Shown here: in pieces, positions 2,356-55,235 of the stretch
Layout: each line of letters opens with the position of its first letter
How positions within the stretch are numbered: position 1 is the first letter of the stretch
Assembly: GCA_964016885.1 (NCBI GenBank)
Contig: OZ024746.1
Span: 88,908,001 to 88,972,000 of the forward strand
Direction: 5' to 3'
DNA from: Eledone cirrhosa
Lineage: Eukaryota
Length of the DNA stretch: 64,000 nt
The notes under the pieces: generated by a model
What the model was told of the DNA's origin: nothing
Seen by the model: only the letters and a program-made list of their open reading frames with translations
The model's database searches: none
Translations under genes and position numbers: made by a program

Positions 2356-4344
2356 TACCTAACTCTATCAAGGATCTCACACATTCTAACTCTAATCCTT
2401 CCATAAGACCTATATACCCTTCCAAATCTGACATTGGCATCATTAGTAAAAAGTGTTTAGATAGAGTCATCCCACAATTAAGAAAACATGTTAATTTACC
2501 ACTCTGGGAAAACACATCCCAGGTAATTAACTGGTTTACTAATATTAGAAATAAATCATCTGCTTCATTTCTACAATTCAATATAGATGCTTATTATCCC
2601 TCTATATCACCCATACTCCTCAACAAAGCCTTGATATTTGCCATAAATAGATCAAACTTAACTATGGATGACATTAATATTATCACGCACGCTAGACAAA
2701 CATTACTGGAATTTCAGAAGGAATACTGGACCAGAAATACATATAGTAATCTATTCGACATTACTATGGGCTCTAGTTATTCTGCCCAAATTACAGATCT
2801 TGTGGGCCTCTATCTTCTATTTAACATAAATACTTCTTTTCCCCACCTTAAAGGTGGTTTATATCGTGATGAATGTCTTCTTCTTTTCACTAACCTTAGC
2901 CTATCAGAAATTGAAAAAATAAAAAAAACCTATTAAAACTTTCCTCAAAGACTATTATAGTATAACTATTACATTTGAAAACACCAGTAAAGTAGTTAAT
3001 TTCCTTGATATAACTTTAGACTTATCTACGGATATCTACCAACCTTACCATAAACCTAACCAAAACTCACATTACATACACTCACAATCCAATCACTCTA
3101 GATCTATCCTTAAAAACCTGGCGTATAATATCTCACTCAGAATTTCTAACCGTTCATCTAAGCAGGATATATTCGATAAAAATGCGACCTTTTATAACGA
3201 AGCTTTAGCTAGAAGCGGCCACAAAAACAAATTAATATATATACCTTGTTCCAATAATACTACAAACATACAACCCAATATTACCAACAAACACCAAATG
3301 AAAAATACACACCTAAATTCCACTCACACTATACCCACAAATACCAACTTAAAATGTATTTCACTACCTCTTCTCACATACAATATAATAACTTTCAAAA
3401 AACCATTCATCCTAATACTCCAATATATCTTAACAAAATTACTAACAAAATTCCTAATAATCAGACTAAAACAGCTAAATCAGTGAATCTAACTAAACAT
3501 ATGTATAATAATTTCACTAATACTAACTCTCTTAGTAAACATCAGGATGCATCGTATAAAAATAAAAATCAGCATCGAAACCGTAATAGACGAGTTACTT
3601 GGTATAATGCTCCATTTAATCTACAAATTAAAGATAATATCCCTAAAAAATGTTTTACTATCCTAGAGAAAAACTTCCCGCCAAACCATAAGTACCATCA
3701 CATTTTAAATAGATCAACGGTCAAATTTTCCTACTCCACTACCAAAATATACAACAAAATAAAAGTGCCTACAATGCATATGAATGTACAAAAACTATGA
3801 ATATACCACCAACACATCAAACTAACCATAATATTAAAATAAACCGCAGCAAACCACCATCGCCTTCATATACAAGTTGAATAAATTCCACACCAAATTT
3901 TACTAACTCCCCTGATATAATATTTACGAATGGTTGTAACTCTAGAAACAAAGCAAATTGCCCATTAAAAGGACATTGCCTTATTAATAACATAGTATAT
4001 AAATGTAAAATTAGCACTAAGAACTCAACTTATACCTATATATAGGAGCTACTTCTAACCAATTTAAAGTAAGATTTAATACCCACAAACACAGTTTTAA
4101 AAATGCCGCATTGGCTGAAATAATTAATAATTATAGAAAAAAGAATATCGATTATAACCTGACCTGGAGTGTGCTCAAAAGGGCCATCCCTTATCAAAAT
4201 AACAGATATGAGTGTAGATTATGTTCCCAGGAACTTTTTGAAATAATGAAATCTAAGGATATCCTATTAAATAAGAGACAAGAATTAATTATATCGTGCA
4301 ATCATAGAATTAGAAGAACTTTCAAATATTATAAACCTAATTAA
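2356..4344 (+). pseudogene. Frameshifted PLE reverse transcriptase-GIY-YIG endonuclease ORF
   Basis: ORF pieces 2631-2936, 3354-3800 and 4111-4344 plus intervening frames. Expected catalytic Asp positions read N (QFNI) and E (YRDE). Confidence 0.93.
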
Positions 4345-18245: not shown

Positions 18246-20561
18246 CATATTGATAACTGTATCGAAATTAATATCGAACACATTTCCAATTATATTAAAT
18301 TCCCGCGCCAGTCAATTAATTAAGTTTCTCATAATAATCTCCGAAACACTTCAAAAACGTATATGTCAAAAAGGAAGCTAATTTGAAAATAACATGCGAT
18401 TAAAATTATTTGTAGATAATGAAAAATATAATCGGGTAATAAGTATAGAAGTCTCATAATCAAATTTGTAAAATGTTTTTAATTGTCGTATGGTCGAATG
18501 AGTGGACCTCGTTAGAATTCTCACGTTTAGTGGAGCATGATGTTTTTCAAAAAATTAATTACGCACTAGTAGATATGCACGTGCCAGAAAAGCGAACATG
18601 TTCTTTATGGCTGCATCTTATCTTTCGTGGTATCAATTGATTTAACAACGATGAACACCAATTCAATGTCTGATCAGCATTAGACGAAATTACTGCTTTA
18701 TTTGCCAACCCATATTAGGCAGCTTGAACACATTATGAAACTGATATTTGTTCAATCAATAGTTACATTGTGTATTCATTTTATCAAGTTAATAAGGTTA
18801 TAACGTTCCGCTTTATAAATTTCATCTTAAGTGTTCCTAATAATTATAAATTTGTAATTACAATAATTTTGAATCGATGTGAACAATGGTCATCATTATT
18901 AGACTTATATGCTATTATATATCCAGAAATAGCAGCTCACCAAAATAGTCGCGGATTCCAAATGTAAGTAAACTTTCTAAAGAATTTGTAAATATAATAC
19001 CAACAAAGTAACTAGCAATACTTTAATTCAAACTTTCATATACAACTGTATATATTGATAAACATGAAGGGAGGATTTTCCTTTTTAAGAAATAAGGGGA
19101 AAAGAAAAACCAATGAATAGAAATTAGTGAAAGCCAATGACGTGTATATGATGATGGTGATAAAAAGCATTTTTGTCTGGAATAGAAATTTATAAGGGCT
19201 GAATAAATAATTCCAAATCATTAGGGAGGGATGACAAGAGAGACACTCTCCTATGGACACGTCGAGGATAGACAGCCGTGGTCTAGATGAACATTTTCAC
19301 AAAAAGGTGAATGACCAGTCAAAACCATAATTTTTTTCATAATGTGTTCCTCTGTCTTGCAAGATTTTAAATCTGCATTCATATTTCTGGTATTACAATT
19401 TATTTTAAAGAGCAGGGAACGTCATGGTATTATTTTATCAATACTCATACTTGAATTCACAAAGATTTAACTAACCACTCTTCTGATTTCACAACTCATT
19501 GTACAATCACGCATATTCACTGAAAGGAATTGAATTACCACGTATATTGACCATTTAGAGGTCACTTCCTACAATTTATGTGAGCATCTGATAGGGATAA
19601 TTTAAAAATGTACACGAATACACCTAAATGTATTTTTTATAGTTTCCTACAATATTCTTTTTCAAAATTGTATTATAAAAAATGATAATTCCCTTTTCAT
19701 AAAGAACTACTGGACATACTTTCTAATTCTCGTCAAAGTCTGTCATGCAACACCTCTTCTGTATTTAGAATTGTGTACATTCTTAATCGAAGGCGCAAAT
19801 CAATGATAATTGTGCTTCATCGTTTCGAGACAAGCGCCAACATTGTGCAATTCTATTTAATAATTAAAAACCAAATGCATAGACTAAAATATAGATTATA
19901 AACTGTTCATATTTTTGCAACTCGATTTTGTTACAATATCTTCCTGGAGCATAAAATGATAACGAAAAGTCAACGGCCTTTCTATTTCCTATCCATAACG
20001 ACAACCTAACAAGTCCAATACAATGAGAGATAATTTAGGCTAAACATATAATTGAGTCTTAATCGGTTCATATTTCTTTCACGTGAGATTACAAATGGGG
20101 AATAGCCATTTGGCCCAAAGCAATCTACCCAATACACGCGATATATTTAATAAGTTTGCTATTAAGCCACAGTGCTAGAAATAGAAAAGCATTCCCTAAG
20201 ATAGCAAAGGTTGAAGAAAGAACACTTCAAAATGGATGAAGATTCAGTCCGGTATAGTTTATGTTAAACCATTTTACTTCTCTTATTAGAAATCAGTTCC
20301 ACAACAGTGGTTTGCATGTGTGTAAGTGTGTGTGGAAAAGGCTAATGTAAAGACAATTGGATAACTAGAAATTACGATAAAGATATATATTAACTTAACG
20401 CTTGGATAGTTGGAGAATTGTCTGCAATGTTGTTATGTAATTCCTACACCGAACAAATAGTAAGATAGACAATGGTAAGAAAAAGAAGAACTGGAAATAA
20501 TCATTTTCGGTCGGAGAAGAGCATATGATTCTATAGTAAGCCATTTCCGAGAAGTCAAATG

Positions 20562-20673
<112 letters not shown>

Positions 20674-20676
20674 ACC

Positions 20677-21560
20677 ATATCATAGATTGAGTTAGAAACT
20701 CAAAATATTCTTTTACAATTAAATAGCTCAAAGAAGGGAATCTTTCCGAGCCGTGTAATATAATTGGATATATGAGAGGAATTAACACAGATATAAGTGT
20801 TCATGTGTTCCAATTGCAAATGACCAAGTTAGCTAGGTTGAAAAATACTAATTTAAAACAATATAGTTTGCCTGACTCGATTTAAAGTAATAAATCAATA
20901 AAAATTACAAACCTATATCGGGCAATAGCCTTTGATACCCGGACAGACGCAAATCTGTTTCACAAGAATTATTAAGTGAAAGCCATAATTCCTGTGCTCT
21001 TCTGCGAAAACACATGTACACTTGTATCTGTGTTCATCGCTCTCATATATCCAATTATATTGCGGCTCGGAAAGATTCCCTTCCTTGAACTATTTAATTG
21101 TAAAAGACTATTTTGAGTTTCTAACTCAATCTATGATATTCTCGGCTCCTTTTGTAGAGCTAACTTTAGTCTCATAAACCCAGCTGCTATTTTAGCGGTA
21201 TGAGTATGAGCCTCGCTAAGCGCTGCGACATGTGCGTTTATATCAACGCTTCGTTCAGTCGTCTTAGATCCTTTGAAGTGAAATGTACAATTTTCCTGGA
21301 TACCCGCAGAAGAACACGGGAAATCTGGCTTTCAATTAATAATTCTTGCGGAACAGATTCGCGTCTGTCCAGGTATCGAAGGCTATTGCTAGATATAGGT
21401 TTGTTATTTTTATTGATTTATTAATTTAAATCGAATCAGGCAAACTATATTGTTTTAAATTAGTATGTATTCAACCATGCTAACTTGGTCATTTCCAATT
21501 GGAACACATGTATACGTATCTCGGTGTTCATCCCTCTCATATATCCAATTATATTATATA
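20677..21560. mobile_element. ORF-less HHR-bearing tandem-unit element (family C, about 494-nt unit) plus an inverted copy
   Basis: 21009-21060 repeats at 21503-21557, and 20677-21006 is an inverted copy that crosses the unit junction. The element is flanked by (TA)n. Confidence 0.85.
21299..21377 (+). ncRNA. Hammerhead-like motif with a variant or decayed core
   Basis: Stem I GATACCCG/CAGGTATC, core CAGAAGA, GGAA (GAAA in the inverted copy), stem III CAGA..TCTG, GUC triplet. Confidence 0.7.
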
Positions 21561-21619
21561 TATATATTTAATATAGAAATGGCTTCTACAGGATTAGAAT
21601 TGTTTCGTGCGGGAGAATT

Positions 21620-21680
<61 letters not shown>

Positions 21681-37880: not shown

Positions 37881-38840
37881 TTGCGAGGCTTCCCTTCCAA
37901 ACACCCTAACAATAGACTACCTGTATTAGACACGGAACTCTGGATTAACACTATAGACGAGAGAGCCCAAATTCTCCACTCACACTATGCTAAACCCATG
38001 GCCTCCAAATACCTGATACTCAAAAACTCACCAATGTCCAGTAGTGCTAAGTTTAATATTCTGATCGCAGATTTGGTACGAGTGATGAGGAATGTGTCCC
38101 GCATGTGCGACCCAACAGAAATGGAAAGACACATCCAACACTTCATCAACCGCATGCAGTTCTCTGGCTACAACCAAAGAGACAGTGTCAGAGTATACGA
38201 AGGAGCCATGGAGAAGTATAAGACCCTCATAGAACTGGACAAGAAAGGAATTTGCCCATTATACAGGAGCAAATCACGGAATAGCTTAGATAGGGCTAGA
38301 CATAAGATACGGAAAGCCACCTCATGGTACGACAACCAGAGATACGAGAGTGTCATGTTTGTGGACGCTACCCCTGGAGGGAAATTAGCTAATCAGTGTA
38401 GAAAGGCCCTGAGAAAGACCCACTTAAAAATAAAGGTGGTAGAAAAGCCAGGAACCACCATAAAATCCCTGATCAGCAAAACCTACCCTTTTAAGAAAAC
38501 CCACTGTACCAATAGGAAATGTATCATATGTAAGGTGAACCCCCGGATAAACTGTAAAACTAGAAACGTAGTCTATAGCATAAGATGTACAGAGGGTACT
38601 TGCAGAAACATGACAACAACATACATAGGTGAGACAGCTCGTAGCATAGGTGAAAGGATAGAGCAACACTGGGGGGAAGTAAAAGGACGAAAAAACGGGT
38701 CAGTACTATATGAACATGCTAGACAACAACATGACGGTAACATAGACAGCATAGAAATTAGAAGACCAAGGCAAAACAGAAAGAATGAATGGAATAACAA
38801 CAACACCCAAACAAACAACACCGACCTAAGAGAAGTATAA
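37881..38840 (+). CDS. PLE RT thumb + CCCC linker + GIY-YIG endonuclease fragment (no RT catalytic core)
   Basis: RLPVLDTELW, HYAKPMAS, RMQFSGY, FVDATPGGKLA, CTNRKCIICK..CKTRNVVYSIRC..C..YIGETARSIGERIEQH. Open for 319 codons; similarity is lost after about 38760. Confidence 0.85.
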   Translation: MRGFPSKHPNNRLPVLDTELWINTIDERAQILHSHYAKPMASKYLILKNSPMSSSAKFNILIADLVRVMRNVSRMCDPTEMERHIQHFINRMQFSGYNQRDSVRVYEGAMEKYKTLIELDKKGICPLYRSKSRNSLDRARHKIRKATSWYDNQRYESVMFVDATPGGKLANQCRKALRKTHLKIKVVEKPGTTIKSLISKTYPFKKTHCTNRKCIICKVNPRINCKTRNVVYSIRCTEGTCRNMTTTYIGETARSIGERIEQHWGEVKGRKNGSVLYEHARQQHDGNIDSIEIRRPRQNRKNEWNNNNTQTNNTDLREV

Positions 38841-54668: not shown

Positions 54669-54704
<36 letters not shown>

Positions 54705-54708
<4 letters not shown>

Positions 54709-55235
54709 GAATATAAAAGCTAAGCGAACACAGATATAAAGATATATGTGTTCAAATCGTAAGGGACATGGTTCGCTAAGGTGAAAAGAATACTAACTAT
54801 AGACAATTCGGTTCGCTTGTCTCAGTTTAAGAAAAAATTAAGAAAATAAATACAACCCGGAATTGTGGTAACTACCAATCACACAGACAACTTGTTGTTG
54901 TTTCGCAAAATTAATTGTGAATAGAAATACTAATCCAAGCTCATCAGTAGGTGATGATTAGTATCCTAGTCACATCTCTGTATGCTATATATAAAAAATA
55001 ATAAAACAGCGTACATGGCATCCTGGCGAGTCTCACACACCCACACCACTAGAAATAGCAGGCTTATTCGACATATATTTTATATATAATATGCTATTAT
55101 ATATATTCTATTATAAAATACGGTTCAGAAATTTCCCTTTCTTAGAGCTATTTCAAATGTCGAGTAAGCCTGGCTGCTATTTTTAGTGGTGTGGGTTTGT
55201 GAGACTCGCTAGGATGTCATGTGGGCTGTTTAAAT
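54705..55235 (-). mobile_element. Diverged relative of family C with an inverted arm
   Basis: 54720-54950 resembles 20780-21006. 55005-55072 and 55157-55231 are inverted copies of each other and resemble 21180-21240. Confidence 0.75.
54878..54955 (-). ncRNA. Type I hammerhead ribozyme with canonical core
   Basis: ATCACCTA CTGATGA GC..GC GAAA CAAC AACAA GTTG TC TGTGTGAT. The triplet is GUC and stem II is weakened. Confidence 0.78.

Follow-up and report, generated by a model that had tools for sequence, protein, structure and literature searches.

The locus at positions 20677..21560 of a 64,000-nt stretch of the Eledone cirrhosa genome (the window) raises the question of whether a short repeat without a reading frame was copied from a circular or from a linear RNA, and by which enzyme. 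A first-pass annotation had described an ORF-less, retrozyme-like unit of about 494 nt with one hammerhead, and much of that outline stood up when re-measured. The direct repeat placed at 21009-21060 and 21503-21557 comprises 53 nt at 21009-21061 and 21503-21555, with 89% identity at a spacing of 494. The inverted arm at 20677-21006 matches 21305-21556 (89%, 252 nt) and then, as claimed, crosses the junction into 21009-21139 (92%, 133 nt). Stop-free frames in 20677-21555 reach 84 codons at most, in agreement with the absence of an ORF. The length of about 494 nt holds in the window, where the copy has lost 2 nt at the junction, and other copies measure 495-497 nt. The single hammerhead is of type I, but its core reads CAGAAGA and not CUGAnGA; likewise, the relative reported at 54705-55235 has the CUGAUGA core ascribed to it (54947-54941, minus strand) but belongs to a separate family, B, with 68-69% identity to the window unit over 160-171 nt (E about 1e-9).

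Table 1. Parts of the window insertion, its target flanks and the family B copy of the same window.
Feature	Position	Strand	Remark or basis
(TA)n tract, left target flank	20566..20674	none	sequence
Inverted 5'-truncated arm, 330 nt	20677..21006	-	ends at long 3' end (...CTATGATAT)
Inverted-arm hammerhead	cleavage C at 20942	-	most of stem I 5' strand absent
Forward arm, 547 nt (one unit + 53 nt)	21009..21555	+	ends at short 3' end (...ATTATAT)
Twice-copied 53 nt, upstream copy	21009..21061	+	89% to 21503-21555
Twice-copied 53 nt, downstream copy	21503..21555	+	89% to 21009-21061
Optional tail between short and long 3' ends	21061..21139	+	about 81 nt in family A
GGCUC...GAGCU hairpin just 3' of short start site	21064..21091	+	GAACU in window forward copy; intact in inverted arm, from 20753 downward
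Second GGCUC...GAGCU hairpin just 3' of long start site	21144..21161	+	sequence
Type I hammerhead, forward arm	21299..21377	+	stem I 21299-21306/21370-21377
Forward hammerhead core CAGAAGA	21307-21313	+	U4A, family-wide in A; GUC cleavage C at 21369
Extra forward core changes	G10.1>A at 21314, A13>G at 21351	+	not family A majority
Short (TA)n, right target flank	21556..21568	none	sequence
Sister family B copy	54701..55235	-	minus arm 54701-55063 ends at family B short end; plus-strand fragments 55100-55235
Family B copy core CUGAUGA	54947-54941	-	canonical; cleavage C 54886

A direct repeat together with an inverted arm is the ordinary pattern of a PLE insertion and, alone, is not proof of a circle; the accessible portion of PMC8557442 counts among PLE features partial tandems, a truncated copy in inverse orientation, a tail that is often confined to one end and a bias towards microsatellites. 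The window locus is one two-armed insertion of a dispersed ORF-less family, which we term family A. A one-off local duplication is excluded by 2,226 genome candidates for the unit, 40 of which were scored, and by 737 exact matches to a family A 19-mer. As 53 of 99 sampled segments carry that 19-mer exactly, scaling gives at least about 1,400 segments, a lower bound because the sample favours well-kept copies. Regular attachment to an RT/GIY-YIG ORF, the other outcome that would have spoken against the annotation, was not seen in the loci sampled: PLE protein matches occurred in 1 of 85 and 11 of 200 loci, and those inspected had no in-register continuation into an ORF. The unit of 495-497 nt has a GC content of 37%, its majority sequence set in tandem has no stop-free frame above 108 codons, and copies diverge from the majority by a median of 3.6% at non-diagnostic sites.

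Family A is one of five related ORF-less families (A, B, C, D and E) in this 3.0-Gb genome. Family B yielded 1,648 candidates and 1,407 exact 20-mer matches, and family C, with a unit of 557 nt, 3,454 candidates. Families C, D and E were first met beside PLE loci, and searches with C and E gave further ORF-less copies. Family E (531 nt) is young, with best copies 98-99% alike; its copies (L314-L343) combine a canonical core with a long stem III and a GUA site, and it is the best candidate for current activity.

To map the insertions, we took 65 family A and 66 family B loci on contig C1, chosen by a short motif alone (for A, the 19-mer), leaving out five (A) and four (B) overlapping fetches. 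The 132 family A arms have variable 5' ends and two preferred 3' ends: a long site terminates 54 arms and a short site, 81 nt upstream of it, another 47, while 31 end elsewhere. TA-rich DNA follows 87 of 101 defined family A ends and 71 of 92 defined family B ends. The 65 family A loci contain 47 two-armed clusters, 34 of them with both ends defined, and 33 of these 34 pair one long with one short end. The same pairing was found in 23 of 24 scorable family B insertions (from 41 clusters) and, in the best-scoring loci, in 10 of 11 for family C and 14 of 15 for family E, giving 80 of 84 scorable insertions over four families. The window insertion obeys this rule, with its long end at 20677 and its short end at 21555. 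In their (TA)n targets, truncated 5' ends, partial tandems and inverted arms, and in having a choice of two 3' ends, copies of the unit bear the signature of PLEs. Target-site duplications are mostly hidden by (TA)n; flank repeats, nearly all TA-like, occurred in 3 of 62 loci in A and in 4 of 66 in B; locus L019 has a clear duplication of 13 bp.

Twelve of the 132 family A arms exceed one unit, the longest reaching 877 nt (1.8 units), and the cut site is crossed twice in 4 of 132 family A and 1 of 116 family B arms; in families C and E, maximum arm length is 3.3-3.45 units. The joins are seamless and head-to-tail. Family A consists of dispersed partial tandems, and no long array of it was seen among 100 of the 280 exact-match places listed. 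A candidate array at G000:C2:121.1 Mb was rejected as two separate insertions.

In families A, B, C and E, a copy of a GCUC...GAGC hairpin follows each of the two ends at a distance of 3-5 nt, although one local fold of the family A long site gave a different structure. The ends themselves have sequences such as UAUAU and GAUAU, which could allow pairing with a nicked (TA)n primer. We infer from these positions that the hairpins set the start sites of reverse transcription. GGCUC hairpins were absent from the ends of the sampled autonomous PLEs.

The majority sequence of family A folds as a three-stem type I hammerhead. All eight of the eight stem-I pairs change on both sides across 17 real copies from the five families, a covariation score reached by none of 500 shuffles (the shuffle ignores relatedness), and the fold is thereby supported. 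The canonical core occurs in families B, D and E and not in A, where position 4 is A in 82 of 92 rounds and exact genome matches to the core number 280 for CAGA vs 4 for CUGA. Seven family A rounds have T at this position, most of them from loci fetched for T, in a listing that includes one family D copy and one misaligned row. In a sequence tree, which is weakly resolved and has B on a long branch, the U4-bearing copies stand apart from one another among A4 copies. Family B reads CUGAUGA in 26 of 31 motif matches (a few of which are unrelated) and family E CUGAGGA in 25 of 26, while family C carries a U3:A8 swap in 31 of 31. Such a swap is described as a natural, active covariation in the accessible part of PMC3088659, which also reports U4C to be slow in vitro and sufficient in a viroid; single mutants of the CUGA turn had low activity in the portion of PMC9901934 available. 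By analogy, the U4A hammerhead of family A is predicted to cleave poorly, and yet the family spread. A search for canonical cores would miss family A because its core is U4A. We found no report of a natural U4A hammerhead in the literature searched, which lay outside most subscription journals. One pair of stem III reads A-U in one A4 subfamily but has been replaced by G-C, or the reverse, in others, a hint that selection still acted on the fold.

In the window itself both hammerheads are likely dead, since two further changes mark the core of the forward one and most of stem I is missing from the inverted one. Folded as single sequences they do no better than shuffles (z -1.5 and -0.7), and an Rfam scan of the window gave no hammerhead among 150 of the 172 matches listed at E<=1; the ribozyme call rests on our own motif, folding and covariation tests. 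A Pfam scan of 28 window frames gave nothing above the cut-off. Autonomous Neptune PLEs of this genome also carry hammerheads in their pseudo-LTRs (L081:452 and 5431, minus strand; L085 about 1320, minus strand), one family having a U3:A8 core. These are minimal, whereas the family A hammerhead is full-size with a stem I of 7-8 bp.

The genome holds long RT-CxxxxCxxC-GIY-YIG frames, in which the CxxxxCxxC linker denotes Neptune (PMC8557442, accessible portion), and the eukaryote-named relatives of its PLE proteins come from bivalve molluscs. GIY-YIG candidates number 10,596, of which 150 were scored and 50 loci examined. Three chimeras point to machinery common to Neptune PLEs and the ORF-less families. 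Locus L224 has a Neptune 3' arm and a family A arm in head-to-head arrangement, about 8 nt apart and flanked by TA tracts; L261/L344 joins a Neptune arm of 1.4 kb to a family B arm; and in L294, the long end of family C lies directly against a Neptune endonuclease that is truncated. All three are single cases, at a frequency of 1 in 227 A arm flanks and 1 in 116 B arm flanks, and each could alternatively stem from two insertions and a deletion. Pairing of a long with a short end also occurs in an autonomous Neptune family, whose tail measures 68 nt.

We consider it likely that family A is a non-autonomous PLE, copied into (TA)n by Neptune-type enzymes from two internal sites of one, probably circular, RNA. 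Transposition would begin with transcription of a partial-tandem copy that has two hammerheads, and cleavage and ligation would then yield a unit-length circle. For the sister families with intact cores this circle step is somewhat more probable than not; for family A it is finely balanced and leans slightly towards the alternative, an uncut read-through RNA, because reduced cleavage is predicted for U4A. A Neptune RT/GIY-YIG protein, probably a dimer, as predicted for the PLE protein in the accessible part of PMC11167929, would next bind the two GCUC...GAGC hairpins and cut (TA)n DNA. Each DNA end would pair with the UAUAU/GAUAU just 5' of one hairpin and prime synthesis, and with each end primed at a different hairpin, the long site would give rise to one arm and the short site to its partner. 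Such pairing runs contrary to the priming without target homology described in the available text of PMC11167929. Two truncated cDNAs joined head to head would finally give the inverted structure, and synthesis past a full turn the direct repeat. A more specific form of this scheme, which we put forward tentatively and regard as possible though doubtful, has the dimer dock on both hairpins of a single circular RNA and prime each broken (TA)n end at a different one. It would account for tail, inverted arm and pseudo-LTR in one step, and would make family A either the bearer of a working U4A hammerhead or a retrozyme lineage spreading after the loss of self-cleavage.

The nature of the template can be approached through variants shared by the pieces of one insertion. 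At 51 diagnostic sites, agreement within an insertion was 397/459 between rounds and 674/771 between arms, against 52% and 51%, respectively, for random partners, so that arms and rounds of one insertion come from the same template. Substitutions private to a locus among those sampled were common to the pieces of one insertion in 8 of 62 cases in family E, 14 of 132 in C and 11 of 131 in A. As a mutation arises in one unit, the sharing of variants between rounds implies a recent step that reads one unit twice, which a circle would explain simply and which template re-entry or gene conversion would explain too.

The same insertion mechanism could instead have used a linear template throughout, an uncut read-through of a tandem source, with the family A hammerhead vestigial and homogeneity arising by template re-entry, jumps between sister RNAs or gene conversion. 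We judge this unlikely, though it draws on several observations: U4A is fixed in family A (280 vs 4), family A arms never exceed 1.8 units, and in the accessible portion of PMC11167929 hammerhead mutants still insert in vitro and RNA left unprocessed serves as the main substrate. In addition, agreement at diagnostic sites within an insertion is 87% and not about 95%, and some tandems look mixed (L029, 4/9; L216, 4/7; the window copy, 3/6); these mixed tandems, the window's included, count against a strict rule of one circle per insertion. Linear copying alone, however, shortens tandems and should transmit position-specific differences, and none recurs in family E among 46 differences in 21 tandem pairs; an apparent one at site 384 was rejected as a gap-placement artefact. 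Families A and C do have some recurrent differences between tandem rounds. Arm 5' ends show no excess at the cut site (3 of 41 in A, against 2.65 expected; 0 of 21 in B, where subfamily divergence blurs the mapping of ends), and the three family A arms that start 2-3 nt past it are as many as chance gives. The 5' ends of family A spread round the whole unit, whereas short Neptune copies have a single stop point, and the stem-III difference between A4-bearing subfamilies suggests a selected fold rather than a vestige. Taken together, the shared rare variants, the sister arms of up to 3.4 units and the lack of a pile-up at the cut site favour the re-reading of one unit, probably a circle.

A second alternative holds that the units are truncated pseudo-LTR ends of an autonomous PLE family outside our sample. 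The sample, with 150 of 10,596 GIY-YIG candidates scored and 50 loci examined, leaves room for such a family, and short copies consisting of a pseudo-LTR only do exist for one Neptune family in this genome. Past the long end, however, sequence returns seamlessly to the unit start, for up to 3.45 turns and without an ORF, and the 108-codon maximum for a stop-free frame in the majority-unit tandem likewise speaks against this alternative. By blastn and nhmmer over the sampled GIY-YIG loci we found no homologous autonomous partner, only separate neighbouring ORF-less insertions; the sampled PLE loci, a small part of the 10,596 candidates, gave no match at the 3' end either, and the Neptune pseudo-LTRs are unlike the ORF-less unit. 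We regard this alternative as improbable. A DNA-level repeat (satellite, MITE or fold-back) or local duplication with a chance hammerhead-like motif, suggested by palindromic-looking copies and by the silence of Rfam among the matches listed, is scarcely credible and largely refuted by arm-end mapping and stem-I covariation, given the variable inner breakpoints beside outer ends confined to two sites, the single orientation that defines every 3' end, the dispersal of copies over many contigs and the exchange of C3:G8 for U3:A8.

With a non-autonomous PLE copied from a probably circular RNA as the preferred reading, family A can be set beside known systems, as far as the accessible portions of the sources describe them. 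Like the animal non-LTR retrozymes (PMC7229834; bioRxiv 10.64898/2026.07.22.740005), it is ORF-less and low in GC, bears one full-size type I hammerhead, forms seamless tandem copies, is well paired as a circle (z -3.3 for a real copy) and coexists with PLEs. Its unit of 495-497 nt exceeds the range of 150-450 bp given in PMC7229834 and falls within that of 51-972 bp in bioRxiv 10.64898/2026.07.22.740005. At least two hammerheads in tandem occur in some family A and B arms, and C and E exceed three units. Unlike those retrozymes, family A has a U4A core, forms dispersed partial tandems with inverted arms rather than long arrays, and has no homologous pseudo-LTR of an autonomous element among the sampled PLE loci. 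Its description as retrozyme-like can be kept for its ORF-less, seamless head-to-tail, genome-wide, hammerhead-bearing and PLE-like copies, and has to be qualified for its noncanonical core. As family A lacks the canonical core, we file it as a non-autonomous PLE and retrozyme-like variant, while families B, D and E carry the sequence hallmarks of retrozymes. The annotation had thought the family possibly undescribed; the kind is already known, because bioRxiv 10.64898/2026.07.22.740005 argues that such units derive from PLE pseudo-LTRs. In the literature we searched, which lay outside most subscription journals, Dfam and Repbase, we found no description of family A itself, nor any count of how long and short ends are paired that goes further than remarking that the tail is frequently at one end.

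With Neptune PLEs and their non-autonomous forms, such as the Chlamys-linked MRC1 (PMC8557442), family A shares 5' truncation, partial tandems, an inverted 5'-truncated copy, a tail at one end, (TA)n targets and a hammerhead near the 3' end. It differs in lacking an RT or GIY-YIG frame and in a tail of about 81 nt, not 30-40. For the green anole's Poseidon PAc (PMC11167929), two internal RT start sites bound the tail and both DNA strands are cut and extended, much as we propose here, and the hammerhead is no barrier to copying: mutants in it were without effect on insertion in vitro. PAc starts in an AC-rich stem-loop without target homology, whereas family A starts at AU-rich sites that can pair with (TA)n, each followed immediately on its 3' side by a GC-rich hairpin that is repeated.

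The enzyme that mobilises animal retrozymes and the origin of the tails and inverted arms of PLEs are left open in the accessible portions of PMC7229834, PMC8557442, PMC11167929 and bioRxiv 10.64898/2026.07.22.740005. This genome offers thousands of short copies in five families, with a near-strict rule of one long and one short end and a candidate RNA signal for each start, together with Neptune chimeras and a natural series of hammerhead cores (canonical, U3:A8 and U4A). The priming mechanism of PLEs and the role of the ribozyme are thus directly testable with the existing in vitro PLE assay. Family A itself is of an ordinary type, one more noncoding retroparasite of a described kind, with no sign of a host function.

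Several further observations were made alongside. By tblastn, positions 38532-38687 and 2959-3171 of the window weakly resemble the endonuclease and RT regions of Neptune (E about 1e-4 to 1e-5) and are probably decayed PLE remnants, and 61387-61479 matches the 3' end of another Neptune family over 93 nt at 82%. The repeats flanking the insertion at 20290-20565 and 21570-21620 are similar to the palindromic sequences on either side of L003 and may belong to another element that targets TA. In L230:1394-1607, a 36-nt piece of the family A unit is repeated at least six times at the join of the two arms, as if the reverse transcriptase had slipped repeatedly. The Neptune family at L081:4950-5700 (minus strand) has many short palindromic copies (L033, L124, L131, L132, L278, L286, L338-L340), in which both arms start at almost the same place; this place lies upstream of the hammerhead, about 220 nt away from the long end, and may mark the transcript start in the pseudo-LTR. 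Lastly, another short repeat, with an AT-rich stem I and a motif (CUGAUGA...GAAA) that is hammerhead-like, occurs at L093:6462 and in the flanks of L012, L033, L189 and L200.
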